Source: a virus | Lineage: Duplodnaviria > Heunggongvirae > Uroviricota > Caudoviricetes | Length of the DNA: 32,635 nt | IMG/VR virus record: IMGVR_UViG_2627853795_000005 | Span: 1-32,635 of that record | Reading direction: 5' to 3' (one strand) | Part shown: positions 15,811-32,635 of the stretch, in pieces | Numbering within the stretch: the stretch's first letter is position 1 | Layout of the letters: every line of letters starts with the position of its first letter | The notes under the pieces: model-generated | Seen by the model: the letters and a program-made list of their open reading frames with translations, nothing else | The model's database searches: none | What the model was told of the DNA's origin: nothing | Made by a program: the position numbers and the translations under genes

Positions 15811-15855
15811 TCACCTCACGGCGGGCATCATGCCCGCCTGTAACGGAGAGAAAAA

Positions 15856-17452: not shown

Positions 17453-17454
17453 CA

Positions 17455-17778
17455 GTGAGCACCATTCAAACAGGGATCACAGAGCAGGTTATTGCGTGGC
17501 TCTTTGACCACCTGCCAACGGTGTATGCAGTAGGCGCGGCGGTCAGCATTTCCGCGCTGATGAGTCTTTATGACGGACGAACACTGGTTCAGACCGTAAC
17601 GGGATCGCTGGCGTGCGGCGTTCTTGCCATGGCCGTGGCCGGGTCGTTGCGCTTCTTCGGGTTTCCTGAAGATGCCGTGACGTTTATCGGCGCATCAATC
17701 GGTTTTATGGGTGCAGAGAAAGCACGCGACAAGGTTATTGCGGCCTTTAATCGCAGGGTGAAGGAGAAGGACGAATGA
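17455..17778 (+). CDS. Holin (three predicted TM segments)
   Basis: GTG start after GGGGGGAG RBS; hydrophobic segments VYAVGAAVSISALMSL, VTGSLACGVLAMAVAGSL, VTFIGASIGFMGA; position between X and endolysin. Confidence 0.75.
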   Translation: MSTIQTGITEQVIAWLFDHLPTVYAVGAAVSISALMSLYDGRTLVQTVTGSLACGVLAMAVAGSLRFFGFPEDAVTFIGASIGFMGAEKARDKVIAAFNRRVKEKDE

Positions 17779-18167
17779 GCAACACATTTAAATTCAGCAG
17801 CCGGAGCGAAAAGAATTTGCAGGGCGTAAATCCTGATCTGGTGAAAGTGACCCGACGGGCACTGGAAATCTCGGAAGTGGATTTTGGTATCACCGAAGGG
17901 TTGCGCAGCCGTTACCGCCAGAAGCAACTGGTGGCCACGGGTAAGAGCCAGACCATGAACAGCCGCCACCTTACGGGGCATGCCGTGGATGTTGTGGCTT
18001 ATATCGGCAGCCAGGTGTCATGGGAATGGCCGCTGTACGAAAAAATCGCAGCAGCATTCAGACAGGCCAGCCGGGAACTGAATATTCCGGTGGAATGGGG
18101 CGGCGACTGGAAGACCCTGAAAGACGGACCGCATTTTCAGTTACCACACGGAGCCTATCCGGCATGA
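17775..18167 (+). CDS. Endolysin, peptidase M15-type (zinc D-Ala-D-Ala / L-Ala-D-Glu peptidase fold)
   Basis: 130 aa; SRHLTGHAVDV and C-terminal GGDW...GPHFQL motifs typical of M15/VanY-like endolysins; lysis-cassette position. Confidence 0.8.
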   Translation: MSNTFKFSSRSEKNLQGVNPDLVKVTRRALEISEVDFGITEGLRSRYRQKQLVATGKSQTMNSRHLTGHAVDVVAYIGSQVSWEWPLYEKIAAAFRQASRELNIPVEWGGDWKTLKDGPHFQLPHGAYPA

Positions 18168-18571
18168 AGCTCTGGCCCACGCTGGGCGTCGCTTTCCTTC
18201 TGATTGCCGCATGGGGAACATCCATGCGTCTGTCGTGGTCGCTGGGCCGGGAGAACGCCAGAAACGAAGCGCAGGCCAGCGCCCTGAAAAGTACCGTCGA
18301 CACCCTGAATATCATCAGCACCGGGGTACAGGATATGCAGCAGGTGCTGGCGCAACTCCGCGTGGAAAATCAACAGCGAAATCAGGACGGAGAGGCCAGA
18401 CGTGAACAGCTACGCAACGATATTGCAAAAGATGAATGCGCCCACGCTTTGCCTGACGCTCGTTTTACTGACAGGTTGCGCAGGCACGCAGAACGCGCCA
18501 CGGCCAGCGCCGTCAGTCCGGCTTATACCGCAGACGCTGACCATACCAGTAATGCCTCCCCCCTTCCCTGA
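18164..18571 (+). CDS. lysB: i-spanin (LysB/Rz-like)
   Basis: N-terminal TM (LWPTLGVAFLLIAAWG), then a coiled-coil-like charged region; ATGA overlap with endolysin stop. Confidence 0.8.
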   Translation: MKLWPTLGVAFLLIAAWGTSMRLSWSLGRENARNEAQASALKSTVDTLNIISTGVQDMQQVLAQLRVENQQRNQDGEARREQLRNDIAKDECAHALPDARFTDRLRRHAERATASAVSPAYTADADHTSNASPLP

Positions 18572-18722
18572 TACTCCCACATGGGGAAATCTCGGTATAT
18601 GGGGCGACCGCCTTCTGGATGCACTGGAAACCTGTAACGCGGATAAACGGGCCATTGAATTACTGGAACAGCGCAGACTGCAACGACTGAACAACGAGGA
18701 CAACAACCATGCTGAAAACTGA
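18402..18722 (+). CDS. lysC: o-spanin lipoprotein (LysC/Rz1-like), embedded in and extending past lysB
   Basis: Lipobox LLTGC followed by a Pro-rich region; GTG start at 18402 with GGAGAGG RBS (alternative ATG at 18432); +1 frame relative to lysB. Confidence 0.75.
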   Translation: MNSYATILQKMNAPTLCLTLVLLTGCAGTQNAPRPAPSVRLIPQTLTIPVMPPPFPDTPTWGNLGIWGDRLLDALETCNADKRAIELLEQRRLQRLNNEDNNHAEN

Positions 18723-19176
18723 TTCCCTGCGTGAAGCCATGACCCGTTCATGCCGATGGTGTCAGGCCAACCCGGAAAAATTCACCATTTTCGTGGAGAG
18801 CGGCAACATTGAAACGACCGGAGAAACGCCCTCGTTTGTTTACCGCTATCAGATGGTGATGTTTGTCATGGATTACGCCGGGGAGCTGGACGACCTCACG
18901 CTGCCGCTACTGGCGTGGTTATCAGAAAATCAGCCACAGTTGTTGCTCAATCCGGAGCGTAATCAGGACATCAAATTCTCCGCCGTTATCAATGACGATG
19001 ACAGCGCCGATCTCCTGTTTACGCTCCCTCTGCGGGAACGCGTTCGCATCACGCGCAGCAGTCAGGGCACGCCGCAGGCAGAACACCTGCCGGAGCCAAA
19101 ACCCCGCCTGCCATCTTCCGAAGGCGACTGGTCGCATGTATTCCAGGATGTGACGTGGGGTGAAAGCGATGGATAA
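18709..19176 (+). CDS. R: Tail completion protein gpR
   Basis: 155 aa; MLKTDSLR... and LLAWLSENQP blocks match recalled P2 gpR. Confidence 0.85.
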   Translation: MLKTDSLREAMTRSCRWCQANPEKFTIFVESGNIETTGETPSFVYRYQMVMFVMDYAGELDDLTLPLLAWLSENQPQLLLNPERNQDIKFSAVINDDDSADLLFTLPLRERVRITRSSQGTPQAEHLPEPKPRLPSSEGDWSHVFQDVTWGESDG

Positions 19177-19804
19177 GGCATTCACCCGCGTGGATGAAAC
19201 CTTTGAGGCCATCCGCGACAGCCTGAATCAGCAGGCCATCAATAACATCGCCAGAAAGCTGGCACAGGATTTACGCCGCGCCCAGCAGGCGCGTATCCGG
19301 TCACAGAAAGCGCCGGACGGGACCGCGTGGACACCACGCAGACGCCGCGTAACCCGGATACAGGAACGCATTCGCTTTATCTGGAATAACGAAGCACGCA
19401 CGCTGAAAAACTGGCATCACGACACGGGGAAATACGGGCGAACCATTACCGGGTGGGATGAGGATAAAAATAATATCCGCACGTTTTACCGGGATGACAT
19501 CGACCGTTTTCTGGAAATACGCACCCGGCGCATCAACCAGGACAGCACAAAGCGCGTCCCCATGTTCGTAAAACTGCGCACCGCCCGCTACCTGAAAGCC
19601 CGTGCAGATGCTTCCGGTGTGACGGTGGGTTACAGCGGCGTGGCCGCACGTATTGCCCGCGTTCATCAGTTCGGTGAGCGCGATCAGGTTGCGCCGGGCA
19701 TTTTCACCGATTACCCGGTACGTGAGCTGTTGGGTATCAGCCAGGCAGATGAGCGCCTGATTTATAACACGGTGCTGGGCCGGATTGCGGAGGCTGTACG
19801 GTGA
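19169..19804 (+). CDS. S: Tail completion protein gpS
   Basis: Synteny between R and V; ATG at 19169 (a GTG at 19160 is an alternative start). Confidence 0.75.
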   Translation: MDKAFTRVDETFEAIRDSLNQQAINNIARKLAQDLRRAQQARIRSQKAPDGTAWTPRRRRVTRIQERIRFIWNNEARTLKNWHHDTGKYGRTITGWDEDKNNIRTFYRDDIDRFLEIRTRRINQDSTKRVPMFVKLRTARYLKARADASGVTVGYSGVAARIARVHQFGERDQVAPGIFTDYPVRELLGISQADERLIYNTVLGRIAEAVR

Positions 19805-20382
19805 GCGCAGAACTCATGCGACTGCTGAGCAATATCATCCGCACCGGGATCATCTCTGAAGTTGATGAGAAGTCCTGGCGCGTGCGCGTTCGCAGCGGCG
19901 AACTGGAAACAGGCTGGCTGCGCTGGAACACCACGCGCGCGGGAGCCTTCAATGTGTGGCTGCCGCCATCACCAGGCGAACAGGTGGTAATTGCCTGCAT
20001 TGGCGGCAACCCGGAAACCGCCATGATAATTGGCAGCCTGTGGAGTGATGCCAATCCGGCACCCGGCAAAAGCCTGAAAGAAATCGTGATCAGCGCGCCG
20101 GACGGCGCGGTGTTCCGCTACGACGCGGACGCTGGCGCACTGAGCGCCAGCGGCATGAAAACGGCCACTTTACAGGCATCCGTCAGCGTGAAACTGGATA
20201 CGCCCGTCGTGGAATGCACAAACCTTCTGAGAACGGCGACGCTTGACGTCACAAAAGGAGGAAAGATGAGCGGCAATATCACGCACAGCGGCGGCAACTT
20301 CACCTCAAACGGCATTACCGTGCATACGCATAAACACGGTGGCGTGAAAGGCGGCAGCGATTCGACAGGAGGCCCGCAGTGA
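19801..20382 (+). CDS. V: Baseplate spike / assembly protein gpV
   Basis: IRTGII, GEQVVIACIGG, CTNLL...TLDVTKGGKMSGNITHSGG..SNGITVHTHKH blocks match recalled P2 gpV; GTG start overlapping S stop. Confidence 0.9.
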   Translation: MSAELMRLLSNIIRTGIISEVDEKSWRVRVRSGELETGWLRWNTTRAGAFNVWLPPSPGEQVVIACIGGNPETAMIIGSLWSDANPAPGKSLKEIVISAPDGAVFRYDADAGALSASGMKTATLQASVSVKLDTPVVECTNLLRTATLDVTKGGKMSGNITHSGGNFTSNGITVHTHKHGGVKGGSDSTGGPQ

Positions 20383-20729
20383 CAACCCGCTACACAGGAA
20401 TGAATCCGGACGGGACGGGAAACCTGAACGATATGGAGCACCTGAAACAGTCAGTCAGGGATATCCTGACCACCCCGCTGGCAAGCCGGGTTATGCGACG
20501 GGAATATGGCAGCCTTGTGCCTGATTTGATTGACGAACCCATGAATAACACCACGCGTCTGCAATGCATGAGTGCTGCCGTGATTGCGCTGACACGATGG
20601 GAACCCCGCATTGCCCTGGATGCCATCGACGTTGTCTGGAAAGCGGGAGGCCGCGCCGGGGTGACGCTGTCGGGCACTGTCATGCAGACCATGCAAAATG
20701 TTGAATTAACCATCACGCTGAGGGAGTAA
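20379..20729 (+). CDS. W: Baseplate wedge protein gpW (gp25-like)
   Basis: MTTRYTGMNPDG...SRVMRREYGS...WEPRI blocks match recalled P2 gpW; GTG start with AGGAGG RBS. Confidence 0.9.
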   Translation: MTTRYTGMNPDGTGNLNDMEHLKQSVRDILTTPLASRVMRREYGSLVPDLIDEPMNNTTRLQCMSAAVIALTRWEPRIALDAIDVVWKAGGRAGVTLSGTVMQTMQNVELTITLRE

Positions 20730-20732
20730 ATC

Positions 20733-21629
20733 ATGCCTGCCGTTGACCTTTCCCAGTTACCGGAACCCGCCATCATCGCGGAGCCTGACTTTGAGGCAAT
20801 TCTGGCTGACACAAAGGCCATGATGATTGCGGCTTATCCCGCCGAACAGCGTGAAGCCGTCTCCGCCGCGCTGGAGCTGGAATCGGAACCCCTGAACGTT
20901 ATCGCCCAGACAACAGCGTTTCGTGAAATGCTGTTACGCCAGCGGGTCAATGAGGGGGCACGCGCCTGCATGTTAAGCCACAGCGCCGGGACAGACCTGG
21001 ACAACCTCGCGGGCAATATGAACACAAAGCGCCTGACCATCACTCCGGCAACGGATACCACCGACGCGGTGATGGAGAGCGACACCTCGCTGAGACTGCG
21101 GGCGCAGCGGGCGTACGACGGCCTGAGTGTTGCTGGCCCGTCAGGTGCATACGAGTATTTTGCCCGCAGCGCCAGCGGTCTGGTGCGTGATGCGCGGGCT
21201 ATCAGCCCGTCTCCGGCAAATGTGACGGTTTCCATCCTGTCCACTGAAGGCGACGGCACAGCAACGGAGGCGTTGCTTAATACCGTTCGCGCCGTTCTGA
21301 ATGCAGAGGATACCCGCCCGGTGGCCGACCGCCTGACCGTACAGAGTGCCAGAATCGTGACATGGCGGCTGAATGCAAAACTGTACTTTTACCCCGGCCC
21401 GGAATCCGAACCTATTCTGGCCGCGGCTGAATCGTCGTTCAGGAAGTGGCTGGCTGAGCAGGGGCTTATCGGTCAGGACGTGGCGTTGTCCGCCATTGCT
21501 GCCGCACTTCATGTGCACGGCGTGCAACGCGTGGAGATAATCGAACCCACACAGAATATGGCCATCAGCGACATACAGGCGGCGCGCTGTGAGTCATTTA
21601 CCATCAGCGAAGGTGGGCGCAATGAGTAA
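20733..21629 (+). CDS. J: Baseplate assembly protein gpJ
   Basis: N-terminus MPAVDLSQLPEPAIIAEPDFEAILAD matches recalled P2 gpJ. Confidence 0.9.
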   Translation: MPAVDLSQLPEPAIIAEPDFEAILADTKAMMIAAYPAEQREAVSAALELESEPLNVIAQTTAFREMLLRQRVNEGARACMLSHSAGTDLDNLAGNMNTKRLTITPATDTTDAVMESDTSLRLRAQRAYDGLSVAGPSGAYEYFARSASGLVRDARAISPSPANVTVSILSTEGDGTATEALLNTVRAVLNAEDTRPVADRLTVQSARIVTWRLNAKLYFYPGPESEPILAAAESSFRKWLAEQGLIGQDVALSAIAAALHVHGVQRVEIIEPTQNMAISDIQAARCESFTISEGGRNE

Positions 21630-22152
21630 TTCACTGTTACCGCCATCAGCCAGCAATTTCATGCGTTGTGCCGAAGCCGTCGGAACACGCATTACAGACA
21701 TTCCGGTAGACCTCAACACGCTGTGGTCGCCGGACACCTGCCCGGTGCATCTGCTGCCTTATCTCGCCTGGGCATTTTCCGTTGACCGCTGGGATCGCAA
21801 CTGGCCGGAAGAGACAAAGCGACAGGTGATTCGTGATGCATGGCTGATACACCGACACAAAGGGACCATCAGCGCACTGCGCCGGGCCATTGAGCCGCTG
21901 GGATACCTCATTCGCGTGTCTGAGTGGTGGGAGTTCGGCGGAGAACCGGGAACATTTACCGTTGAAGTCGGCACGCTGGACAGTGGCGTGACGGAGGAAA
22001 TGTATCTGGAAATGGAGCGGTTGATTGCTGATGCCCGCCCGGCCAGCCGCCACATGACAGGGCTGAATATCATTCAGGAGATCCCGGGGGATATTTTCGC
22101 GGCGGCAGCAACTTACGACGGTGAAGTCATTACCATTTATCCGGACGATTAA
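21622..22152 (+). CDS. I: Baseplate protein gpI
   Basis: LWSPDTCPVHLLPYLAWAFSVDRWD and EMERLIADARPASRH blocks match recalled P2 gpI; ATG at 21622 overlaps J stop. Confidence 0.9.
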   Translation: MSNSLLPPSASNFMRCAEAVGTRITDIPVDLNTLWSPDTCPVHLLPYLAWAFSVDRWDRNWPEETKRQVIRDAWLIHRHKGTISALRRAIEPLGYLIRVSEWWEFGGEPGTFTVEVGTLDSGVTEEMYLEMERLIADARPASRHMTGLNIIQEIPGDIFAAAATYDGEVITIYPDD

Positions 22153-22154
22153 GC

Positions 22155-24551
22155 ATGAGTACCACAACACGAAAATTTAAAACCGTTATCACCGATACGG
22201 GTGCAAAAAAATTAGCTCAGGCAGCCGCGCCAGATGGTAAGCCTGTCCGCCTGACTCATATGGCCGTGGGCGACGGTGGCGGCACGTTGCCCACACCAGA
22301 CAGTAAGCAGACCCGTCTGGTGCATGAGGTGTGGCGACACACTGTTAATCGCGTCATCCTGGACGCAACACATCAGAACCGCATTATTGCGGAGCTGGTT
22401 ATTCCTCCTGAAACGGGCGGATTCTGGATCCGGGAAATTGGTGTATTTGATGAGCACGGCGATTTAATCGCGGTGGGCAATACTGCGGAAAGTTACAAGC
22501 CAGCCGTTGCCGAAGGATCCGGACGTGCACAAACATTTCGCACCATTCTGACCGTATCCAGCACTGCCACCGTGGCGCTTACCGTGGATAACACCATGGT
22601 GATGGCCACAGTGGATTACGTGAATGACAAACTGAAAGAGCATGAACAGTCACGACGTCACCCGGATGCCTCGCTGACCGCAAAAGGCTTTGTTCAACTC
22701 AGTAGCGCCACTAACAGCGATTCTGAAACGCTGGCCGCAACGCCGAAAGCGGTTAAGGCCGCGTATGACCTGGCTAACGGAAAATATACCGCTCAGGACG
22801 CCACGACGGCACGAAAAGGGATAGTCCAGCTCAGTAGTGCCACCAACAGCACGTCTGAAACAGTGGCCGCGACACCGAAAGCGGTTAAGGCGGTAATGGA
22901 TGAAACGAACAAGAAAGCGCCCTTAAACAGCCCGGCGCTGACCGGAACGCCAACAACACCAACTGCGCGACAGGGAACGAATAATACCCAAATCGCAAGC
23001 ACGGCTTATGTGATGGCCGCGATTGCCGCCCTTGTAGATTCGTCACCTGATGCACTGAACACGCTGAACGAGCTGGCGGCGGCGCTGGGAAACGACCCGA
23101 ATTTTGCGACCACCATGACTAACGCGCTTGCGGGTAAGCAACCGAAAGATGCCACCCTGACGGCGCTGGCCGGGCTTGCTACTGCGGCAGACAGGTTTCC
23201 GTATTTTGCGGGGAATGATGTCGCCAGCCTGGCAACCCTGACAAAAGTCGGGCGGGATATTCTTGCGAAATCGACCGTTGCCGCTGTTATCGAATACCTC
23301 GGTTTACAGGAAACGGTAAATCAGGCTTCTGGCGCATTACAAAAAAACCAGAACGGCGCAGATATTCCTGATAAGGATCGCTTCCTGAGTAACATTAATG
23401 TTTACAGCAAAGGCGAGGTGGATAAGAAAAAAGGAATGCAGCAGTACGCATTTAATGCGCCGTCTAATGCAGTTGGTGGAAAGTGGTATCCAGTTATTTT
23501 CCGGCGTTCCACAGGCAGCACTGGCGAGCTGGCTTCCAGAGTGATTATAACGACCACATCTGCCGGCGGTAATTACGAAATGAATAACTGCGAATTCAAT
23601 GGAATGGTAATGCCTGGTGGCTGGACTGATCGTGGTTCATATGCGGCAGGTTATTTTTCGACGTATCAGACTAATGAGCGCGCAATCCATTCCATTGTAA
23701 CAAGCCTTAAAGAAGATGATGTATGCAGCGTTTTTTACGTTGAAGGCAGGGCTTTTCCTGTGCGGGTTTCTGCTGAAGAAGGGCTAACGGTTATTGTTCC
23801 AACTCAGGATTATACCGTCGGTCAAACAACATATAAGTGGGGAGCAACTAATCCCGCGACAGAAAGCACGAACGCACAAGCTATTCTGGATTTTAACAAT
23901 GGGCGAGGGTTTTATTGTTCTCACTCAATATTCGGTATTAATGCCATTTTTAGCGGAAATCTGGGGATTGGAACGGCTAATGCCCTGGGTGGCAATTCAA
24001 TAGTTTTAGGAGATAACGATACCGGGTTTAAACAAAATGGTGATGGGGTGCTGGATGCTTATGCTAATGGTGTGCATGTATTCCGCTTTAGAAATGGTTC
24101 AGCAATATCATTAAAGGGTATTCAGGCTGGGGAAAGTAAGTTATTCACACTTTCAAGCGCAAATACCGCTGCCCGTAATGCATCATTTAACTTGTGGGGA
24201 AATTCGTCAAGACCAATTGTTGTAGAGCTTGGTGATGATTCAGGCTGGCATTTCTGTAGTCAGCGGAATACAGATAACTCGGTGATATTTGCTGTAAACG
24301 GTCAGATACAACCAAGCAATTGGGGTAACATTGATTCCCGATATGTAAAGGATGTTCGGCTTGGCTCACAGCAATATTATGGTGTAAACAACTGGCAAAC
24401 ATGGGACTTCCAGTGCCCATCGGGCTATGTACTGACGGGTATCAATGTTCAGGATGTCGGGAAAAACTCTGCCGATAATATTGCGGGCGTTTATTACAGA
24501 CCCGTTCAAAAATATATAAATGGCACCTGGTATAATGTAGCGAGCGTTTAA
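22155..24551 (+). CDS. H: Tail fibre protein gpH (conserved N-terminal anchor, divergent lower-GC distal part)
   Basis: 798 aa; N-terminus and [20 protein letters not shown] repeat match recalled P2 gpH; C-terminal end ...[16 protein letters not shown]. Confidence 0.9.
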
Positions 24552-24552
24552 T

Positions 24553-25080
24553 ATGATGCACTTAAAGAACATAAAAGCGGGTAATACTAAAACACCGGAG
24601 CAGTATGAGTTAACAAAGAAGCACGGAGTTATCTGGCTTTACTCTGAGGACGGAAAAAACTGGTATGAGGAAGTGAAAAACTTTCAGCCAGACACAATAA
24701 AGATTGTTTACGATGCAAATAATATTATTGTCGCCATCACTAAAGATGCCTCCACACTTAACCCTGAAGGTTTTAACGTCGTTGAGGTCCCCGATATAAC
24801 AGCCAATCGTCGGGCCGATGATTCCGGTAAGTGGATGTTTAAGGACGGAGCTGTAGTTAAACGGATTTATACGGCAGACGAGCAGCAACAACAGGCCGAA
24901 TCACAAAAGGCCGCGTTACTTTCCGAAGCGGAAAGCGTTATTCAGCCACTGGAGCGCGCTGTCAGGCTGAATATGGCGACGGATGAGGAGCGTAGCCGAC
25001 TGGAAGCATGGGAACGCTACAGTGTTATGGTCAGCCGTGTGGATACGGCAAAGCCCGAATGGCCACAAAAGCCTGAGTAA
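24553..25080 (+). CDS. G: Tail fibre assembly chaperone (gpG/Tfa-like)
   Basis: 175-aa ORF directly after H; low-GC; typical Tfa size and position. Confidence 0.8.
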
Positions 25081-25085
25081 AAATT

Positions 25086-25105
25086 AAGGCCCGCTATCGG
25101 GCCTT
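25086..25105. terminator. Bidirectional intrinsic terminator between convergent tfa (+) and gpU (-)
   Basis: aaggcccg-ctat-cgggcctt hairpin, A-run upstream on + strand (T-run on the minus strand). Confidence 0.7.
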
Positions 25106-25152
25106 GTCTCATTCAGGTTGCTAATCTAACCATTAGCGGTTTTTGTGTTAAA

Positions 25153-25647
25153 TCAGAACAGCCCTTTAACTGAACTGGTTGCGCTGTTAAGGGATGATGT
25201 GACCTTATCTTTGAAGCCGGACAGCATATCACTGAACGATGAGGATTGCAGGCGTTCCCGCAAATCCTCATCGCAGCGTTCAAGAGTCAGTGAAAACTCT
25301 ATCTTTTTCGCCTTGCCGTAGCGATCAAACTCGGAACGGGTCGTATTCGTTTCAGTCAGTACATACATGCCGTAAATCTGCCCGACACCATCAATCAGAG
25401 GCCAGGGGCGTCCTGTATATGCCTGCGTGGTCAGCAACGAAAGCGACACTTCGCCACCTGTAATTTCAGGATAAAGCACGCCGGAAAGCACGATGCGATC
25501 ATCACCTGCGCCGATATACTGCCAGCTTGCTGAACGGTTAACGCGTTCATTTTTCACATGCCGCCAGCTTTTGTTTTGCTGTAACTGCTGATGCGGCAAT
25601 GTGCGCAGCTCAAAAACAAACATGCCGTAGATCATCATCATGGCCAT
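25153..25647 (-). CDS. U: Tail protein gpU
   Basis: 164 aa; QNKSWRH, LSGVLYPEITGG, WPLIDGVGQIYGMYVL, KIEFSLTLER blocks match recalled P2 gpU. Confidence 0.85.
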   Translation of the reverse strand: MAMMMIYGMFVFELRTLPHQQLQQNKSWRHVKNERVNRSASWQYIGAGDDRIVLSGVLYPEITGGEVSLSLLTTQAYTGRPWPLIDGVGQIYGMYVLTETNTTRSEFDRYGKAKKIEFSLTLERCDEDLRERLQSSSFSDMLSGFKDKVTSSLNSATSSVKGLF

Positions 25648-25653
25648 GACTCC

Positions 25654-28503
25654 TCAATCTTTATCGTAAAAACTGCCACGCCCGGCACGGGCGCGCCGTT
25701 CCATTTCTGCCCTGACCATTTCGCCAACCAGTTTCGCCAGTTCGCGGGGATTCTGTGTAACAACGTTATGCAGATGAACATGAATTTCACCGCCAAATCC
25801 GGAGGCAACAGACTCCCGGTTACGGGAAGTTGCAGGAACTGATGCCACTGGCGATCGTATAGCCTCCGCCACCGGGCGGGAGCTGGCCGCAACAACAGGG
25901 ACCAGCGCCGGAGGCAGCGGAGCCGGAACCACGGGTGTGATATTAATTGCGGGGGCAGGCTTACTGACCTGCGCAATCTTCCGCTCCTGCCACTCCCCAC
26001 GAACAGCAAGTGCGCGGGGCAGGTTCTTAAAGACAATATCGCCGGGGCCAATGCGTTTTTTCGTCTCATCAACCAGCTTACCTGTGTTATCAGCAATTTT
26101 GCTGAGTCTGCGTAGCGTACCGGTATTGTTGTCTGTGAGCGGTTTGTTGTCTCTGGGTTTATCGCCTTTTTTGTCGTCGACCTTATCTGACGGGGCCGGG
26201 CCGGGAGTCCATGGTTTCTGAACCATTTTCTTGAGAACCGGATCCCATTCCCACATTACAGGAGCCTTTGAAGCGTTCTCTATTTTCTTTCTCGCCCGTT
26301 CCGCTTCATCCGGAAGCACTCCGAGCTTTTCAAGTATCCACGCCAGTGAATCCATCAATGCTTTTGTTGGCGTCAGGACAAGCTCTATCGCTCCACCGAG
26401 TACCCTGCCGAATACCTCGCCAGCACTGGTACATTTATCCAGCGTTTCCTTGCTGGACTCCATCGGTGACAGCAGCGATTTAAACCAGTTAAAGACCTGA
26501 ATAATCCCATCGCGCACGACATCAAAAACTGGACCGAACCGTTCAAAGGTTTCGCGCAACGGAGCCAGCCGTTCCATAATCCCACTGAACACCCCTGCAT
26601 AAAACGCCTTGATGGGTTCCCAGTATTTCCAGATGAGAACCGCCGCAGCCACAAACGCAGCAGCAATCAATCCGACCGGGCTGAACAGCGCCCCGATAGC
26701 GCCCCCCAGTAACGAAACGGAACCCGTCACCATTCCCCATAGTGCTGGCAGGAGCCTGACAGCATTCATTGATCCGGTCAGGAGGGAAAAGCCAAGACGC
26801 AGTTTTGCCAGCGGGCCAGCAAGCACACCAATAGCCAACGACAACGAGCCGACCGTTGCAGTCATCGCCAGCAATGCCCCACCTGCAATCAGTAGCTGGC
26901 GCGTCAGTGCCGGATGGGCCTGCGCCAGCGCCGTCACCTTTGATACCACCCGCGTGAGCCACTGCGTGACAGAACGCAGCGGACCGTCAATCAGATCTGC
27001 AATGCGGATGCGCAACCCTTCCCATGCACTACCGAGTGATTTCAGATCGCCGTCAAGGTTGTTGGCCATAACCTTTGCTGTGCGTTCAGCCTCACCGCGC
27101 GCGCCTTCAAGTTCTTTTCTCAGTTTGGGTAAGGAGCCGTCACCCGCTGCATCAACGAGCGCCATAAACGATGTGAAAGCCTCTTCTCCGGCAATGTCCT
27201 TAAAGAACGATACCCGGTCAACTTCCCCGTATTTGCGGGTGGCTTTATAAAGGTCGGCCAGTACATCCTCCATCGGGCGCATTTTGCCGTTCGCGTCAGA
27301 GACAGCCACACCCAGCTCTTTCAGCGCCTCTGCTGCCGCCTTTGGCGGTGATGCCAGACGAGCCAGGCTGGCACGCATTGCCGTCCCGGCATCACTCCCT
27401 CTGATGCCCATATTCGCCAGCACGCCAGCCATCGCTGCGGCCTGCTCCAGCGATATTCCCAGCTTACCCGCCACCGGACCTGCATATTTCATGGTTTCGC
27501 CCAGCGCGCGAAGGTCAGTGTTGGTACGGGTAAACGCCGCTGTAAGCGTGTCGCCAACCCGGTCCATCTGGTCAGCAGAGAGGCCGAACTGCGTCAGGAT
27601 ATTTGAGCCAATATCCGCCGTCTCGCCGAGATCCATACCGCCAGCCGTTGCCATGCTCAGCACGCCGGGAAGCGCAGCCTGAATGGCCTGCGGAGTAAAA
27701 CCAGCCATTGCAAGAAATGCCTGTCCACTGGCGGCATCTCCAGCGGTGAACTGCGTTTCAGAGCCAAGTTTTAACGCCTGCTCACGCAGCGCCTTAAACT
27801 GTGGGCTGTTTTTGTCGATTCGCGTCAGTGCCTGAACGCGGGACATCTCTTTCCCGAACCCAATCGCGGGCTGCAAAAAACGCCCGGCAGCATAGCCGCC
27901 CGCCGCTGCCGCACCTGTTGCCAGTGCACCACCTGTTTTCAGTTTTCCCGCGGTTTCCTGCGCGCGCGAATACCGCTCACGCGCCCGCGTTACACGCGCA
28001 AGCGCCTGCCGTTCGCGTTCAAGCTGGTTGTTGTACTGTTCGGTGCGTCTGATGGCCTGTTGAATGGTGTTATCGCTGCCTGTCAGGGAAATGCCGTGGC
28101 GTTTCAGCTCTCCGCCAAGCTCCCGCATTTTCTGAATTTCCCGTGCGCGCGATTCATTCAGGCGTTCAAGCCGGGTGCTTAACTGCAGCATCAGCTTTTG
28201 TTGTTTTTCGCTGAGCACTGTACCCGTGCGTTGTAACTGATTAAGGGCGTTAAGCTGGCGTCGTGCTTTCACGATGCCAGCATCCGCTGTACTGACAGCG
28301 TCGCGGGCACGCTCAAATGAACGCGCCTGACGCTCGAGATTTTTGATCGCCCCCTGAGTTCGCTGGATGGAGTCACCAAACTGCCCCATCAGGCGGCGGG
28401 CGTTTTCGGCAGGCCGGGTCAGCCTGTCAACGGCGCTGAAAGCGACCCGGATATCAAGAGTCTTCATTGTCTGCATTCCCGCTGCGAAGTGCCGCCCGCT
28501 CAC
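25654..28503 (-). CDS. T: Tail tape measure protein gpT
   Basis: 949-aa ORF, coiled-coil N-terminal part and Gly/Ala-rich hydrophobic central segments typical of tape measure proteins; true start may be an internal Met a few codons in. Confidence 0.9.
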   Translation of the reverse strand: MSGRHFAAGMQTMKTLDIRVAFSAVDRLTRPAENARRLMGQFGDSIQRTQGAIKNLERQARSFERARDAVSTADAGIVKARRQLNALNQLQRTGTVLSEKQQKLMLQLSTRLERLNESRAREIQKMRELGGELKRHGISLTGSDNTIQQAIRRTEQYNNQLERERQALARVTRARERYSRAQETAGKLKTGGALATGAAAAGGYAAGRFLQPAIGFGKEMSRVQALTRIDKNSPQFKALREQALKLGSETQFTAGDAASGQAFLAMAGFTPQAIQAALPGVLSMATAGGMDLGETADIGSNILTQFGLSADQMDRVGDTLTAAFTRTNTDLRALGETMKYAGPVAGKLGISLEQAAAMAGVLANMGIRGSDAGTAMRASLARLASPPKAAAEALKELGVAVSDANGKMRPMEDVLADLYKATRKYGEVDRVSFFKDIAGEEAFTSFMALVDAAGDGSLPKLRKELEGARGEAERTAKVMANNLDGDLKSLGSAWEGLRIRIADLIDGPLRSVTQWLTRVVSKVTALAQAHPALTRQLLIAGGALLAMTATVGSLSLAIGVLAGPLAKLRLGFSLLTGSMNAVRLLPALWGMVTGSVSLLGGAIGALFSPVGLIAAAFVAAAVLIWKYWEPIKAFYAGVFSGIMERLAPLRETFERFGPVFDVVRDGIIQVFNWFKSLLSPMESSKETLDKCTSAGEVFGRVLGGAIELVLTPTKALMDSLAWILEKLGVLPDEAERARKKIENASKAPVMWEWDPVLKKMVQKPWTPGPAPSDKVDDKKGDKPRDNKPLTDNNTGTLRRLSKIADNTGKLVDETKKRIGPGDIVFKNLPRALAVRGEWQERKIAQVSKPAPAINITPVVPAPLPPALVPVVAASSRPVAEAIRSPVASVPATSRNRESVASGFGGEIHVHLHNVVTQNPRELAKLVGEMVRAEMERRARAGRGSFYDKD

Positions 28504-28983
28504 GCCAGCTAACCACTTCGCCGGGCGTCATCATGAAGATTTCGGCGGGCGACCAGTTAAAAATAACGGCAATATCTGCCACAAAGTCTTCTATGTGCTC
28601 AAAGCACACAACCGTGATCAGGCTTCCGTCGCCTGTTCGTTCTTCCCGCCAGAGTCCGCACCGCTCAAAAAATTTACGGCAACCACACATAACTGAATAA
28701 AGTCACAGGATGCCATTTTTTTGATCGTCACTTCATCCAGTCGCGGTGATGTCACGCGTGACAGCAGCGTAAACATGGATTCCGCTTTCAGATTCAGCAC
28801 ATCAGACAGCGACAAATCTCGCAGAGATCCAGCCTGCTCAATAGCTCCGGTGATCTCCACATACGTGATTTTTTCGCCGCTTCGCTCAATTGGTTGGGTA
28901 AGTTTTACGCCACGCTCACTGGTTTCTTTCACAGTGTCAGCAACGACCGTGTTTTCGTTATCGATGTTTTTCGTCTCTTTCAT
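28454..28983 (-). CDS. E': Tail assembly chaperone E+E' fusion, made by programmed -1 ribosomal frameshift
   Basis: Slippery heptamer T_TTT_TTG in the E frame (plus-strand 28665..28671); the -1 frame continues as FFERCGLWREERTG... to a stop overlapping the T start, as in P2 E/E'. Confidence 0.7.
28618..28983 (-). CDS. E: Tail assembly chaperone gpE
   Basis: 121-aa ORF between tube and tape measure genes; contains the frameshift site. Confidence 0.8.
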   Translation of the reverse strand: MKETKNIDNENTVVADTVKETSERGVKLTQPIERSGEKITYVEITGAIEQAGSLRDLSLSDVLNLKAESMFTLLSRVTSPRLDEVTIKKMASCDFIQLCVVAVNFLSGADSGGKNEQATEA

Positions 28984-29037
28984 CAGGAAACTCCTTTCAG
29001 TCAGAGGCGACGCACTGCGCCGCCTGCATATTACTTA

Positions 29038-29550
29038 TCAGCCAAGCCCAAGCGCGGAACGGATGCGATCGGGCACAATGTCCTTGCCGTCCTTCCGGTA
29101 AATGAAGTTCAGCAGGTCAATCTCCCACAACGGGCGATCGTTAACACTCAGCTTGTAGTAGGTGTTTTTAATGGCGTAAGTGTGTGATGTGGCTTCGCCC
29201 TGTTTGGCTTCCCCCATATCAATTTCCGTCACACGTCCGCGCATTTCGACTTCATACAGGTCGCTTTCTGCATCGGTGTAGTATTCACCCGCAAAACGCA
29301 GCAGCGTGCCGTCAATCGTGCCGCCATACTTAAGGAACAGCTCACGAACTGCGCCCCCCATGACAAAGCTCGCATCAAGCGCGGAGTCATCCAGGCCGAG
29401 ATCAATACTTACCGCTCCCATCATGCCACCACCCCGGTAGCTGTCGGTTTTGCGCGTCAGCTTAGGCAGAGTGACGGACGTCACCTTACCCACTTCGTTT
29501 TCACCATCCACAAACAGCGTAAAAAAGCGAAGATGTTTTGGTACAGCCAT
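29038..29550 (-). CDS. FII: Tail tube protein gpFII
   Basis: 170-aa ORF directly downstream of the sheath gene on the minus strand; size and position. Confidence 0.85.
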   Translation of the reverse strand: MAVPKHLRFFTLFVDGENEVGKVTSVTLPKLTRKTDSYRGGGMMGAVSIDLGLDDSALDASFVMGGAVRELFLKYGGTIDGTLLRFAGEYYTDAESDLYEVEMRGRVTEIDMGEAKQGEATSHTYAIKNTYYKLSVNDRPLWEIDLLNFIYRKDGKDIVPDRIRSALGLG

Positions 29551-30734
29551 CAGGCACCTCCCAGCACCGCAAATGCGGGACCAAAGAATTCATCAGTAAA
29601 CGACTGGTAAAGCTCCATGTCTTCCAGCGGGGGAACAGGCGTATATTTGTAGCGAATACGCACGCGCCCCTGACGTAAATTCGTGGTGCCGTTATCCACC
29701 ACGTCATACCAGCACGACGCCCCAATCAGTTTCCCGGCAGTAACCAGTGAATCCAGTTTTGCCCTGATAGCACTGATAACATCCTTCACGTTCGCAGGCG
29801 TCAGTGGACTGTCGATGGTTTCAAACTGCGCTTCCGCAATTGAATCAGCCAGCACCTGTGCGGTTCGGGTATACACCTCAAAGATGTAGGCGTTCGTTTC
29901 CGGTGTGCGGTTGCCCCAGAAGCGGAACCCGTTGCGACGAATAATGGTCGTGATTTCTTTGTTGTTGAGGCTGTTGGCATCACTGTCTTCGGCCTGCAAC
30001 GACCAGAACACATGCCTGGACATCCCCAGCACATTTTTAACCGGAACGTTGGACAGCGATTTGTGCCAGCCCTGCTCATGGTCAATGTACGCACGAAGGC
30101 CGCACGCATAGGCAGGCGCGGGGAACGTTTCGTTTTTGCCACTTTTCGGGTTGTAGGCGATGAAGTCCGGCCATAAGAGCATCACCTCACGTTCGTTGAA
30201 TTTCTGGCGGTAGGTAATTGCCTCAGCCATCGTGTTACAGTCATGACATGAGGCATACACAAACGCGCGCAGTTTACCCGCAATCACGCACAGGGATTTT
30301 GTCACCGCCTCCGTGTCCAGCTCCGGCGCGGCCAGAATACGCGGACGGTATCCGATGCTTTCATCCTGCTCTGCAACAAGCAGCGCATACATCCCCGTAT
30401 AGCTGCCGTCATCCTCAGAACCACCGATAACCAGTTGATCCTGCGTCTTACCGCCTTCTTCTTTGTGTTCAGCCACGCGAACGACGATCACTTTTGTGCT
30501 CACCTGGTCTGCGATAGCCTTAAGCGCACGATAAAGCGTCCCCGTAGTCCCGCATTTTCCCAGCACGTCATTGACGCGGGTCAGCAGTGTGGGCTTGTTC
30601 AGCGGGAACAGCTCCGCATCCGCATCATCCGCCGTTGCCACGATACCGATAACGCTGGAATCAACATCATTAATCGCTGTTACCAGGTCGGTACTTTCCG
30701 TGACACGGGCACCATGAAAACGAGTTTCACTCAT
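29550..30734 (-). CDS. FI: Contractile tail sheath protein gpFI
   Basis: 394 aa; AELFPLNKP, KLRAFVYAS, WPDF, IDHEQGWHKSLSNV, IIRRNGFRFWGNRT, YTRTAQVLADS, YTPVPPLE blocks match recalled P2 gpFI. Confidence 0.9.
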   Translation of the reverse strand: MSETRFHGARVTESTDLVTAINDVDSSVIGIVATADDADAELFPLNKPTLLTRVNDVLGKCGTTGTLYRALKAIADQVSTKVIVVRVAEHKEEGGKTQDQLVIGGSEDDGSYTGMYALLVAEQDESIGYRPRILAAPELDTEAVTKSLCVIAGKLRAFVYASCHDCNTMAEAITYRQKFNEREVMLLWPDFIAYNPKSGKNETFPAPAYACGLRAYIDHEQGWHKSLSNVPVKNVLGMSRHVFWSLQAEDSDANSLNNKEITTIIRRNGFRFWGNRTPETNAYIFEVYTRTAQVLADSIAEAQFETIDSPLTPANVKDVISAIRAKLDSLVTAGKLIGASCWYDVVDNGTTNLRQGRVRIRYKYTPVPPLEDMELYQSFTDEFFGPAFAVLGGA

Positions 30735-30890
30735 AGCTTCAGCCCCTTGTATCCGTTAAATGATTCGGCAACAATCATCACCCACCACGCGCGTAATCTC
30801 ACCCCTGCGCCGTTCTCCCGCCACGGCGACAACAAAAAGCAGTAACCCACTCCGCACGCACATGCGACCATGCCGCACAGGGAGGGAAAG
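30735..30890. promoter_or_regulatory. Divergent promoter region between FI (-) and D (+)
   Basis: 156-bp intergenic region between divergently oriented late genes, each with a good RBS; promoter elements not individually resolved. Confidence 0.35.
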
Positions 30891-32000
30891 ATGACCAACA
30901 CCACCATGCAATTGCTCAGTCAGGGCACAGACCCCGTGAAAATGCCGGATTTTGATATTCTCGCGGAGGGGGAAACGCTGTCCGGCGTGGCAGAGCGCCT
31001 GATGAGTCTGTCACTGACCGACAACCGGGGATTTGAAGCGGACCAGCTCACCATCACGCTGGATGATGCGGATGGTCAGTTGCAGCTACCGCCACGGGGC
31101 GCGCGCCTGACGGTTCTCATTGGCTGGAAAGGCGAACCGCTGACAGAAAAAGGCACTTACATTGTTGATGAAATCGCTCACGAAGGACCGCCGGACAGGC
31201 TGACGGTTTCAGCCAGAAGCGCAGATTTTCGGGATGAATTTAACGTTAAACGTGAGGTGTCCTGGCATGATGTGACCGTTGAGCGAGTGGTATCCGCCAT
31301 CGCTCATCGGTACGGTCTGAAACCGCAAATCAGCGAAATGCTGATGGACATCGAAATCGACCACGCCGACCAGACCGAAGAAAGTGACATGTCCTTCCTT
31401 ACGCGCATGGCGGAAATGCTGGGCGCAATCACCACGGTAAAAAGCGGCAATCTGTTATTCATCATGCCAGGTGGTGGCGTGAACGCACAGGGCCAGCCGT
31501 TGCCCTCGTTCGCCATTACACGCAGCAGCGGCGATCGCCATCAGTTCCGCATTGCTGACCGCGAGGCGTATACGGGGGTGCGCGCCTACTGGCTTGATCT
31601 TAATTACGGGAAAAAGAAAAAAGTCAGCGTGAAACGCCGCAAACCGCCAAAACCCAAAAAGGAGAAAAGCAGCAGCCGTGAAGGTGATTATATGGAAGGC
31701 GCGGAAGGCAATGTGTTTGTGTTACGCAAGACTTATCAGAACGAGCAGGCAGCAAGACGCGCAGCGGCGGCAAAGTGGCAGCAGCTACAACGCGGAGCCG
31801 CATCATTCTCCATCACGCTGGCGCGTGGACGTGCAGAACTCTACCCCGAAATGCATGGCACGGTAACAGGATTTAAAAGCGAGATTGATAATCAGGACTG
31901 GATCATTGCAAAAGCCGAGCACACCATTGATAACAGCGGCTTTACCACGCAGCTTGAGCTTGAGGCAAAAATCCCGGAATGGATAGCGGAAACAGAGTGA
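30891..32000 (+). CDS. D: Tail protein gpD
   Basis: ORF 30870..32000; start placed at ATG 30891 after GGGAGGG RBS; size and position before ogr as in P2. Confidence 0.85.
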   Translation: MTNTTMQLLSQGTDPVKMPDFDILAEGETLSGVAERLMSLSLTDNRGFEADQLTITLDDADGQLQLPPRGARLTVLIGWKGEPLTEKGTYIVDEIAHEGPPDRLTVSARSADFRDEFNVKREVSWHDVTVERVVSAIAHRYGLKPQISEMLMDIEIDHADQTEESDMSFLTRMAEMLGAITTVKSGNLLFIMPGGGVNAQGQPLPSFAITRSSGDRHQFRIADREAYTGVRAYWLDLNYGKKKKVSVKRRKPPKPKKEKSSSREGDYMEGAEGNVFVLRKTYQNEQAARRAAAAKWQQLQRGAASFSITLARGRAELYPEMHGTVTGFKSEIDNQDWIIAKAEHTIDNSGFTTQLELEAKIPEWIAETE

Positions 32001-32042
32001 GCAACTTAGAATAGCGGCAGCACCACGTTAAGGGAGGTCGCT

Positions 32043-32303
32043 ATGTTCCGTTGTCCGCTTTGTGGCGCATCTGCCCGTATCCGCACCAGTCGTCCGGAAA
32101 ATGATTCAAACACTGTGCGACAAAAGTATTACCAGTGTAACAATCTGGAATGCGGCGTATGCTTCTCAACACTGGAAGCTTTCCATAAATTCACATCAAA
32201 ACACGCCTCCGGCGTTCACTCTTCAGAAGGTATCCCGTGGCATGATCTGCCAGCTTCACACAGGGGAAACAATCAGATGAGTTTGCCTTTATCTCAGAAT
32301 TAA
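32043..32303 (+). CDS. ogr: Late gene activator Ogr (zinc-finger)
   Basis: MFRCPLCGASARIRTSR...YYQCNNLECGVCF: the Cys4 Ogr/Delta zinc finger (CxxC...CxxxxC) matching recalled P2 Ogr; AAGGGAGG RBS. The C-terminal tail is longer than I recall for P2 Ogr. Confidence 0.85.
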   Translation: MFRCPLCGASARIRTSRPENDSNTVRQKYYQCNNLECGVCFSTLEAFHKFTSKHASGVHSSEGIPWHDLPASHRGNNQMSLPLSQN

Positions 32304-32494
32304 CAGGCAGAATTGCCGGAGTAACAAAAAAGCGATAGATTACGTGCGGGTGCCTTTCGGCTGATGGTCGGAGGGAATACCCGAAGGCCAGATGTGGAAA
32401 GGCCCCGGAAAACATTTCTGTTTAACCGAGGCCCTAACATATCTACCTTAAGCAAGTGATAGGTTAGCGCCTCTCCAACAAAGGAGCAAGCGCT

Positions 32495-32635
32495 ATGTCG
32501 CAAAAATCGCTTACGACCATCACGTTCTGCGTGACGGTAATCCTCATCATCTGGATGCTGCACGGTTCGCTGTGTGAAATACGGATGAGCTTTTGGGGAG
32601 CGGAGTTTGCGGCGTTCTTACAGTGTAAGCAGTAA
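32495..32635 (+). CDS. hok: Hok/Gef-family type I toxin (small membrane peptide)
   Basis: 46-aa ORF MSQKSLTTITFCVTVILIIWMLHGSLCEIRMSFWGAEFAAFLQCKQ: N-terminal TM plus the SLCEIR and AAF motifs characteristic of Hok family; AAGGAG RBS; stop codon is the last 3 nt of the window. Confidence 0.65.
   Translation: MSQKSLTTITFCVTVILIIWMLHGSLCEIRMSFWGAEFAAFLQCKQ

Follow-up and report, generated by a model that had tools for sequence, protein, structure and literature searches.

The inverted FI–U tail-gene block of a P88-like prophage is most probably an old lineage trait with a putative bidirectional Ogr site

The window that we analysed, a stretch of 32,635 nucleotides, carries the tail genes FI to U of a P2-like phage on the strand opposite to that of D and of the baseplate and fibre genes, which raises the question of whether the block was flipped in this particular element or belongs to the architecture of a whole phage lineage. 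The preliminary description of the region had favoured an inversion in this element, which would have separated D from its usual operon, created a new divergent control region and left a cargo site empty. Our analyses indicate that the inverted layout is very likely an old, fixed and functional trait of the P88-like clade, probably accompanied by a bidirectional site for the late activator Ogr.

Judged from its sequence, the window is a complete P88-like prophage of the P2 family (genus Xuanwuvirus, family Peduoviridae). P88 and phiSM cover 83–88% of it at 95–97% nucleotide identity, with P88 covering 83% of positions 1–22000 at 96.8% identity and 88% of positions 22000–32635 at 95.3%. By ICTV convention, a phage belongs to a genus when it is identical to the type phage at approximately 70% or more of nucleotides over the length of the genome. 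For the window and P88, coverage multiplied by identity gives about 0.8, which places the window in Xuanwuvirus. The head and packaging module typical of Peduoviridae is present, with Q and P transcribed leftward and O, N, M and L rightward from a divergent spacer. The order and strands of these six genes are as in P2, and tblastn identities to the P2 proteins are 47% (Q), 44% (P), 38% (O), 41% (N), 37% (M) and 38% (L). The window also encodes the gene A rolling-circle replication initiator (Pfam Phage_GPA, 1.2e-130) and the complete contractile tail set FI, FII, E/E', T, U and D, all with Pfam matches except E. H and G excepted, its proteins are 32–62% identical to those of P2. PADLOC, applied to the cargo region downstream of gene A, gave no match to a defence gene.

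In the tail region, the rightward late operon reaches H near its end (tail fibre, 22155–24551, plus strand; Pfam Phage_tail_fib and Phage_fiber_2) and finishes with G, or tfa (tail fibre assembly, 24553–25080, plus strand; Caudo_TAP, 1.5e-37). Their products share 82% (across H residues 7–398) and 87% amino acid identity, respectively, with P2 H and G. After a gap of exactly 72 bp (25081–25152), the following genes lie on the minus strand: the tail gene U (25153–25647; Phage_P2_GpU, 5.5e-39; 46% identity to P2 U), the tape measure gene T (25654–28503 as the maximal ORF; PhageMin_Tail, 2.3e-58), the E' reading frame with its GpE domain (28454–28690; Phage_P2_GpE, 1.7e-12), the tail assembly chaperone gene E (28618–28983), the tail tube gene FII (29038–29550; Phage_tube, 7.5e-47) and the sheath gene FI (29550–30734; three sheath Pfam domains), which is the first gene of the leftward operon. 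The true start of T is probably near 28461, as suggested by the length of the P88 homologue (2808 bp). E, for which no Pfam match was obtained, is 32% identical to P2 E, and its position agrees with the GpE annotation in P88 and PhiR44_2. E' is reached by a -1 frameshift from E at the slippery heptamer T_TTT_TTG (28666–28672, minus strand), which is intact when read in the E frame and is also the heptamer of the annotated P2 frameshift site. FI is 45% identical to P2 FI and 97–99% identical to its homologues in P88 and PhiR44_2. On the plus strand, divergent from FI, are the baseplate hub gene D (30891–32000; Phage_GPD, 3.2e-17; 48% identity to P2 D) and, 42 bp downstream and co-oriented, the late activator gene ogr (32043–32303; Ogr_Delta, 5e-14), whose product has the Cys4 motif CX2C-X24-CX4C. 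D most likely starts at ATG 30891, which is preceded by a GGGAGGG ribosome-binding site, rather than at the ORF-maximal position 30870; D is 366–369 residues long in P88 and PhiR44_2, and this start fits the end of the region (30890) in the preliminary description. The gene identities proposed there for the minus-strand block (25153–30734) are upheld by Pfam, or by likeness to P2 for E, and its convergence with H-tfa, its divergence from D-ogr and the length of the tfa–U gap are confirmed.

The P2 orientation given in the preliminary description was also right. The RefSeq record of P2 gives the order G, fun (Z), FI, FII, E/E', T, U, D, ogr, with all late genes on the plus strand and fun (Z) itself on the minus strand, and it annotates a single 'F operon; encodes FI, FII, E, E', T, U, D'. 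The window has no such collinear operon, as FI to U occupy the minus strand and D, a plus-strand gene, lies upstream of FI. D is thus split from its P2-type operon, and the difference between the two layouts is a clean two-breakpoint inversion of FI–U. The window shares with P2 the same tail genes, the internal order FI-FII-E/E'-T-U, the adjacency of D and ogr, an Ogr-type zinc-finger activator and a late promoter dyad of the TGT-N12-ACA type, and the geometry of its FI/D spacer is that of the PP/PO region. Unlike in P2, the block runs counter to D and to the V–G genes for baseplate and fibres, there is no translational coupling of D to U, and Z/fun cargo is missing. The window also differs from P2 by the lack of a separate PV promoter and of a gap between S and V, which share 4 nt; between 16.6 and 22.2 kb, a dyad of the right geometry was not found.

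The inverted layout was present at 123 of 123 surveyed loci (window included) with an FI at least 54% identical to that of the window; as the surveys collected the best 80 loci per query, they do not measure the proportions of the layouts in nature. These loci come from approximately 20 genera of Enterobacterales, the only order in which the inverted clade was found within this sample, and also from phage isolates assigned to three named genera. They include P88, PhiR44_2, Citrobacter phiSM (Xuanwuvirus), SEN5 (Senquatrovirus), Kp4848-1 (Reipivirus) and Serratia KSP20, and the further genomic and viral loci that group with the window by their FI are inverted in 117 of 117 cases. All 42 loci with a P2-type FI are collinear, as exemplified by P2 and Gegevirus ST437-OXA245phi4.1. 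Across 160 FI-centred loci, an FI 54–100% identical to that of the window was without exception accompanied by a divergent D upstream of it and by W, J and I on the opposite strand, and among 165 loci none combined a clade-type FI with the collinear order. Neighbour-joining trees of FI, which is in the block, and of D, which is outside it, each contain a branch that parts all the inverted from all the collinear loci. The FI/D junction itself is present at 95–99% identity in 1356 of 5426 complete E. coli genomes (~25%). The exact 72-bp tfa–U junction is rare, with 14 complete E. coli genomes at 80% query coverage or more, in which it is ~90% identical with ~180 extra bases, and this rarity is explained by the P2-type H/G combination of the window, not by the inversion. 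That the inverted layout is the derived one is suggested by the broader range of hosts in which the collinear layout occurs, rather than by a rooted tree, and the gene order of contractile tails is a further basis for this polarity.

The closest relatives, P88, P884B11, PhiR44_2 and Citrobacter phiSM, match the window in gene order and strand (H, tfa, U, T, E', E, FII, FI, D, ogr), have a nearly identical FI/D spacer with the same dyad and, like the window, harbour a ParM partition gene downstream of gene A. The window differs from P88 in its integrase/immunity end (~1–1800), which P88 does not match, and in its P2-type H and G. The same inverted FI–U block and divergent D, with a central TGT-N12-ACA dyad in the D/FI spacer, occur in SEN4/SEN5 (Senquatrovirus), Kp4848-1 (Reipivirus) and KSP20, which are of different genera and hosts and whose FI is only 55–70% identical to that of the window. 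Members of the clade are viable phages, as illustrated by the inducibility of P88 and the spontaneous activity of phiSM (PMC6456863). The papers on P88, phiSM, SEN4/5 and Serratia PP4/KSP20 mention no tail-gene inversion, orientation or rearrangement. In the literature searched we found no prior explicit description of the layout, which is visible in deposited annotations.

These data bear on how the layout arose. Relative to P2, FI–U is indeed flipped, as the preliminary description claimed, but the flip is not an event of this element. A recent, element-specific inversion, perhaps disabling or rewiring tail gene expression, agrees with the departure from P2 by exactly one such rearrangement; nevertheless it is very improbable, as the layout and junction sequences are common to viable isolated phages and to 122 of 122 other related loci, which makes them the norm across a large clade. 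Moreover, the FI/D junction is conserved at 95% identity or more in the 1356 E. coli genomes, and conserved regulatory signals are found on both flanks of the block. A search for inverted repeats or recombinase scars between 25081–25152 and 30735–30890 yielded only short chance pairs within coding sequence, none of which joins the junctions. That the contig was mis-joined or flipped at flanking repeats, a possibility raised at the outset, is scarcely conceivable: nothing but the orientation is unusual with respect to P2, yet the same arrangement is found in many finished chromosomes, independently sequenced phages and IMG/VR contigs, and the block has no flanking repeats that might mislead an assembler. 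As negligible is the probability that the window represents one state of a reversible inversion programmed by a site-specific DNA invertase, as for Mu G (Gin), P1 C (Cin) and e14 (Pin). The likeness lies in the inversion of a tail-gene segment and in a related Gin/Cin-type invertase directly adjoining U in the close relatives P88 and phiSM. However, the segment consists of 5.6 kb of essential tail genes and not of alternative fibre C-termini, no flanking inverted repeats were found, and the alternative state was seen at none of the 123 loci. The tfa–U site holds a DNA invertase cassette in only 6 of 69 clade members and lacks it in 63, and tblastn with the P88 invertase found no homologue in the window between the stop codons of I and U, the interval tabulated. 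In P88, an invertible tail-fibre cassette with its invertase occupies ~2.2 kb between tfa and U, versus 72 bp in the window, and that invertase adjoins a classical H-C-terminus/tfa duplicate pair, its evident substrate.

An ancient module replacement, in which the ancestor of the clade would have acquired FI–U and the PF promoter from another P2-like phage and inserted them in reverse, is improbable, if less so than the preceding explanations. P2-like phages are mosaic, and the 82–87% identity of H and G to P2, compared with 32–62% for other structural genes, attests that tail modules are exchanged. Nevertheless, divergence from P2 is uniform along the window (32–46% identity in FI–U, 37–47% for head genes and 48% for D) and thus shows no sign of a foreign module, with FI–U as divergent as the head, baseplate and D proteins. 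Also against replacement, D separates the clades as cleanly as FI does although it lies outside the block, and a collinear phage with a clade-type FI is lacking among the 165 loci. We infer that the originating event was an inversion in situ.

The divergent FI/D control region postulated in the preliminary description exists, and the spacer contains a clade-conserved dyad with flanking hexamers. An Ogr-type activator dyad, TCTCCCGCCACGGCGACA (30814–30831), lies midway between FI and D and corresponds to TGT-N12-ACA with one mismatch, as its left half-site is TCT and not TGT (form T[G/C]T-N12-ACA); the PP/PO and PF sites of P2 itself likewise carry one mismatch. For another P2-like phage, a shared PP'/PO' site has been described together with the consensus TGT-N12-ACA (PMC3931495). 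A search for exact TGT-N12-ACA had seemed to indicate that Ogr sites are lacking, with six occurrences in the window where chance alone predicts 7.25, and none in the late spacers; footprinting of the clade accounts for this absence by the TCT half-site. In 108 of 113 unique clade sequences, the dyad and the FI ATG are separated by 65–79 nt, and in an alignment of 49 divergent representatives the conserved columns of the spacer are the dyad half-sites, which are the most conserved, and two flanking hexamers. At 35–40 nt from either edge of the dyad, we predict -10 hexamers for FI (GATGAT, 30774–30779, minus strand; predicted start ~30767) and, in the mirror position, for D (GACCAT, 30866–30871, plus strand; predicted start ~30878, giving a short leader of ~13 nt). 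A hexamer of the form xA...T occupies the FI-side position in 100 of 108 clade sequences and the D-side position in 95 of 108 inverted sequences versus 2 of 19 collinear ones (88% versus 11%); these sequences are related to each other, so that the counts overstate the independent support, and the collinear control comprises only the 19 of 42 loci that yielded a recognizable dyad. Ogr-type late promoters, at which transcription depends on Ogr and on the alpha subunit of RNA polymerase, are characterized by a TGT-N12-ACA dyad centred ~55 nt upstream of the start, a weak -10 element and no good -35 element, and on both sides of the FI/D dyad a weak -10 hexamer is found at the calibrated distance. 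A generic sigma-70 scan gave no match in the spacer, as expected for activator-dependent promoters, and is hence uninformative.

The other bidirectional late control region of the phage, the divergent P/O spacer, contains a matching dyad, TCTGGCCGTTTTCTTACA (13809–13826), with the same extended motif ...ACAACAAAAGC as the FI/D dyad and predicted start sites at 13762 (minus strand) and 13873 (plus strand). The spacing rule, with the hexamer 35–40 nt from the dyad edge and the start at +47, was set on the window and its clade. Applied to P2, it returns 3016 and 3127 for PP and PO, which are exactly the annotated starts, and 17625 for PF, annotated at 17626–17628. A distance of 111 bp separates the start predicted for FI from that predicted for D, just as it separates PP from PO in P2. 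In SEN5, the most distant named member of the clade, both the P/O and the D/FI spacers harbour perfect TGT-N12-ACA dyads.

We propose that one breakpoint of the inversion was upstream of the PF activator site, the FI promoter thus moving along with FI, and that the other was at the U/D boundary. Breakpoints at these positions would leave the dyad-symmetric Ogr site midway between FI and D, and the old PF site is probably a bidirectional late promoter for FI–U and D-ogr. From the sequence, we infer that Ogr binds at 30814–30831 and that both start sites are used, with activation occurring leftward for FI–U and rightward for D-ogr as at the single PP/PO site of P2. The clade would have added the -10-like hexamer and the short leader with its ribosome-binding site on the D side, and D-ogr would form a two-gene late unit that keeps ogr under late read-through. 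We consider it rather likely that the inversion was tolerated in this manner, the symmetry of the dyad having turned the one-way PF into a second PP/PO-type promoter (PFI/PD), such that two shared sites run all the late genes with no separate PV and D-ogr is under direct Ogr control. We found no description of a regulatory architecture of this type in the literature searched.

The layout might also be clade-wide with D-ogr, or ogr alone, transcribed from an Ogr-independent sigma-70 promoter, the dyad then serving FI only, as PF does. P2 ogr has its own promoter, a weak sigma-70-like match is found inside D upstream of ogr (31863–31892), GACCAT is poor as a -10 element, there is no good -35 element and the predicted D leader is very short. 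We nonetheless regard this possibility as unlikely. The D-side hexamer is at the exact mirror distance and is enriched in inverted over collinear sequences, a poor -35 element with a weak -10 element typifies the P2 late promoters that depend on an activator, D is required in step with the other tail proteins, and PP/PO provides a precedent for bidirectional activation from one site. If the bidirectional PFI/PD promoter does operate, a symmetric activator site has been co-opted to drive a gene orphaned by an inversion, and the D-ogr unit places the activator in a positive-feedback loop that is tighter than that of P2. It would then offer a testable example of an operon-splitting rearrangement fixed without a new regulator, useful for the engineering of P2-family phages and tailocins.

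The biology is ordinary, with a modest regulatory twist. Because roughly one in four complete E. coli genomes carries the junction, annotators who work from the P2 map will repeatedly meet this 'inversion' in P2-like prophages. It should be read as a clade marker, and not as damage, a recent rearrangement or a misassembly. Two deep Peduoviridae lineages are cleanly told apart by the layout, which taxonomists could adopt as a simple synteny character.

At the other end of the block, the convergent ends of G and U would be parted by a single terminator. A terminator scan detected a G+C-rich hairpin of 8 pairs, 6 of them G-C, AAGGCCCGCTATCGGGCCTT (25086–25105), followed on the minus strand by the T-run AATTTTTACT. 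This hairpin is the predicted terminator of the leftward FI–U transcript, and it probably also blocks read-through from H–G. The tfa–U cargo site is empty in the window, as the preliminary description stated, and a cargo-free site is the common state in the clade. In SEN5, a macro-domain gene is located inside the fibre region.

The ORF map and Pfam searches confirmed that the tail genes FI to U all lie on the minus strand, convergent with H-tfa and divergent from D-ogr. This FI..U block comprises the sheath gene FI (29550-30734), the tube gene FII (29038-29550), E (28618-28983, from the ORF map), the E' frame with its GpE domain (28454-28690), the tape measure gene T (25654-28503) and U (25153-25647; Pfam Phage_P2_GpU, 5.5e-39). 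H (22155-24551) and tfa/G (24553-25080) on its left, and D (30870 or 30891 to 32000; Phage_GPD) and ogr (32043-32303; Ogr_Delta) on its right, are on the plus strand. The RefSeq record of P2 bears out the gene order and orientation given in the preliminary description: G, fun(Z), FI, FII, E/E', T, U, D and ogr. Its late genes are all on one strand, fun(Z) itself being on the other, and one F operon is annotated. Comparison of the strands in the window with this map thus reduces the difference to a single clean inversion of FI..U with two breakpoints. A P2-type collinear F operon was also considered as a candidate and rejected, its defining feature having been tested for and not found. The E/E' slippery heptamer T_TTT_TTG is unbroken (minus strand, 28672-28666) and identical to that of P2, so that the block looks functional.

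The annotated records of phages P88 and PhiR44_2, the latter with Gp names, show the same layout as the window, with U, T, E', E, FII and FI on one strand, tfa convergent and D-ogr divergent. A tblastn search with FI matched 534 phage records, a spread of which were opened. Salmonella phage SEN5 (Senquatrovirus; FI 56% identical to that of the window) and Klebsiella phage Kp4848-1 (Reipivirus; 70%) have the inverted layout, and in Serratia phage KSP20 (68%) D is divergent from FI, whereas Klebsiella phage ST437-OXA245phi4.1 (Gegevirus; 49%) is collinear with P2. We then surveyed the best 80 FI loci from one-genome-per-species bacterial contigs and the best 80 from IMG/VR, with 10-kb flanks each, placing V/S, W, J, I, U, T, FII, D and ogr by tblastn with window and P2 proteins as queries. 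The loci split perfectly into 123 inverted ones, including the window, and 42 in P2 order, counts that reflect this best-80 selection and are no measure of how common each layout is in nature. In the inverted group, D is upstream of FI and divergent from it, and W/J/I are on the opposite strand wherever the flank reaches, with a single exception; FI is 54-100% identical to that of the window and 43-55% to that of P2. The collinear FI proteins are 45-51% identical to the former and 57-100% to the latter. In neighbour-joining trees, whether of FI, in the block, or of D, which lies beyond it, a single branch parts all inverted from all collinear loci. In the exception, from Trabulsiella odontotermitis, FI and D are still divergently paired, but U is followed by a co-oriented I-like gene, 6.5 kb downstream of FI; V, W and J were sought by tblastn in this locus and not found, and it may be a rearranged remnant. 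In one IMG/VR locus, the 5' end of the D gene carries a tandem repeat with units like ACAACAAACAACCAAAGAAGC.

The hosts of the inverted group are all Enterobacterales (Salmonella, Citrobacter, Enterobacter, Kosakonia, Klebsiella, Raoultella, Trabulsiella, Yokenella, Mixta, Erwinia, Pantoea, Brenneria, Pectobacterium, Symbiopectobacterium, Chania, Dryocola, Providencia, Morganella, Photorhabdus and Xenorhabdus), and those of the collinear group also include Pseudomonas, Acinetobacter, Ralstonia, Paraburkholderia, Collimonas, Stenotrophomonas and others. The general gene order of contractile tails is sheath-tube-TMP-U-D. On these two grounds, host range and tail order, rather than on a rooted tree, we regard the inverted layout as the derived state. 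A 1-kb probe of the FI/D junction detected it in 1356 of 5426 complete E. coli genomes at 95-99% identity.

The inverted FI..U block is therefore lineage architecture, and the proposal of an inversion particular to this element is not supported: the layout is the norm across a large clade, an outcome that the preliminary description had itself allowed for. Nor did the search for inverted repeats or recombinase scars at the junctions reveal an inverted repeat linking the two; all pairs reported there were short, imperfect and within genes. Control of the segment by an invertase was rejected, as the window has neither an invertase nor flanking repeats. Protein identity to P2 does not single out FI..U as a foreign module, being even across modules (FI..U 32-46%, head 37-47%, V/W 44-46%, D 48%, J/I 55-62%), with H and G the only outliers. 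The element belongs to a known genus, its layout has been visible in deposited annotations from P88 onward, and the inverted arrangement itself is ordinary. Neither an inversion nor the orientation of the tail genes is mentioned in the papers on P88, phiSM, SEN4/5 and Serratia PP4, and we found no paper commenting on it in open-access full text. A shared-site promoter model would be a modest, testable addition.

The FI-D spacers of the clade (103 distinct sequences) share a central motif, G(G)TTGT/GTCT-N-(G)ACAACAA, which is the P2 late-promoter consensus TGT-N12-ACA (PMC3931495). Of 113 unique upstream regions, 108 have this dyad, with at most one mismatch, at a distance of 65-79 nt from the start codon of FI; matches elsewhere in the spacer are scattered. 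The dyads of the P2 promoters PP/PO and PF also have one mismatch, and in SEN5, a distant member of the clade, the P/O and the D/FI spacer each contain a perfect dyad. In the window, the predicted Ogr-type dyad of the FI/D spacer (TCTCCCGCCACGGCGACA, 30814-30831) shares the extension ACAACAAAAGC with that of the P/O spacer (TCTGGCCGTTTTCTTACA, 13809-13826), and two of the only three occurrences of the extended pattern T[G/C]T-N12-ACAAC are at these central positions. Anchoring 49 mutually divergent representatives on the dyad showed that the conserved columns are the two half-sites and an xA..AT hexamer 35-40 nt from each dyad edge, one facing FI and the other D. The divergent FI/D control region of the preliminary description is thus borne out as a prediction, in the form of a spacer with a conserved dyad and two flanking hexamers.

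A spacing rule set on the window and the clade, which puts the hexamer 35-40 nt and the start 47 nt from the dyad edge, was then run on P2, where it gave exactly the annotated PP/PO start sites, 3016(-) and 3127(+), and 17625 for PF, annotated at 17626-17628. In the window it predicts an FI start at ~30767 (-10 GATGAT, leader ~33 nt) and a D start at ~30878 (-10 GACCAT, leader ~13 nt, followed by the RBS GGGAGGG and ATG 30891), 111 bp apart, like PP and PO in P2. Taken at maximal ORF length, O and D would begin at 13866 and 30870, upstream of the transcription starts predicted for them (13873 and 30878), and the annotated P and O starts of SEN5 have the same flaw. Given these predicted starts and good RBSs, ATG 13899 (after GAGGGG) and ATG 30891 are more likely the starts of O and D.

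We consider a bidirectional PFI/PD promoter in this spacer the somewhat likelier arrangement. The PF activator site would have travelled together with FI in the inversion and, the dyad being symmetric, the same site could also have served D once a -10 arose on the D side. Of the inverted-clade sequences, 95 of 108 have the D-side xA...T hexamer, versus 2 of the 19 collinear-clade sequences with a recognisable PF dyad, and P2 has CCTGCC at this position. The main alternative is that an Ogr-independent promoter drives D or ogr, and a weak sigma-70-like match inside D (31863-31892) speaks for it. With the shared PFI/PD site, the late genes of the clade would probably be driven from two bidirectional sites. 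No PV-type site or S-V intergenic gap was found, S and V (19160-20382) overlapping by 4 nt, and no TGT-N12-ACA site with promoter geometry is present between 16.6 and 22.2 kb of the window. The P2-type PV promoter and orf30 seem to be absent from the window, and since S and V are not separated by such a site or gap, O through G (13866-25080) may form one late transcript of ~11 kb.

The 72-bp tfa-U gap (25081-25152) is without cargo, as first described. It contains a G+C-rich hairpin (25086-25105), starting 6 nt past the tfa stop. On the minus strand a T-run comes after it, so that it is a good predicted intrinsic terminator for FI..U; the plus-strand T-tract is poor. Read-through from H-G past the gap would be antisense to U..FI. 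In P88, unlike in the window, a DNA invertase adjoins U beside a classical duplicated fibre-C-terminus/tfa pair. This invertible cassette (4482-6693 of the P88 locus L001), also found in phiSM and a few others, consists of a Gin/Cin-type DNA invertase together with an additional tfa and an alternative fibre C-terminus. Clade loci have 1.6-5.6 kb (median 3.0 kb) between I stop and U stop, and only 6 of 69 have an invertase in this interval, so that the cargo-free junction is the usual state. Only 14 complete E. coli genomes match the exact tfa-U junction (~90% identity), a rarity explained by the P2-type H and G: H (N-terminal 400 residues) and G (22155-25080, plus strand) are 82-87% identical to their P2 counterparts, ~85% at the DNA level, and the other structural proteins 32-62%. 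This indicates a recent exchange of the tail-fibre module between the P88 and P2 lineages.

The window is essentially an entire P2-family prophage, bounded by int on the left and ogr on the right. Its nearest phage records by megablast are Escherichia phage P88, Citrobacter phage phiSM, Xuanwuvirus P884B11 and PhiR44_2; the 95-97% identity to P88-group phages across 83-88% of the window assigns it, by this measure, to the genus Xuanwuvirus. These matches start at ~1790-1820, leaving out positions 1-1800 (integrase, repressor, cox end). The integrase is 54% identical to P2 Int and the repressor 57% to P2 C, which suggests that the integration and immunity module was exchanged relative to P88. 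Directly 3' of the replication gene A, at the position of the tin/old cargo hotspot of P2, is a partition cassette of the type II plasmid kind (8551-9826, plus strand), without PADLOC matches to defence genes in this region. It encodes a 319-residue ParM/StbA (StbA_N 9.7e-81, ParM C-terminal 3e-68) and a StbB/ParR-like protein (Plasmid_stab_B), and the same parM is annotated in P88 and phiSM. Such a cassette is odd in an integrase-bearing prophage and may reflect a phase of plasmid-like existence or a means of stabilising the replicating form.
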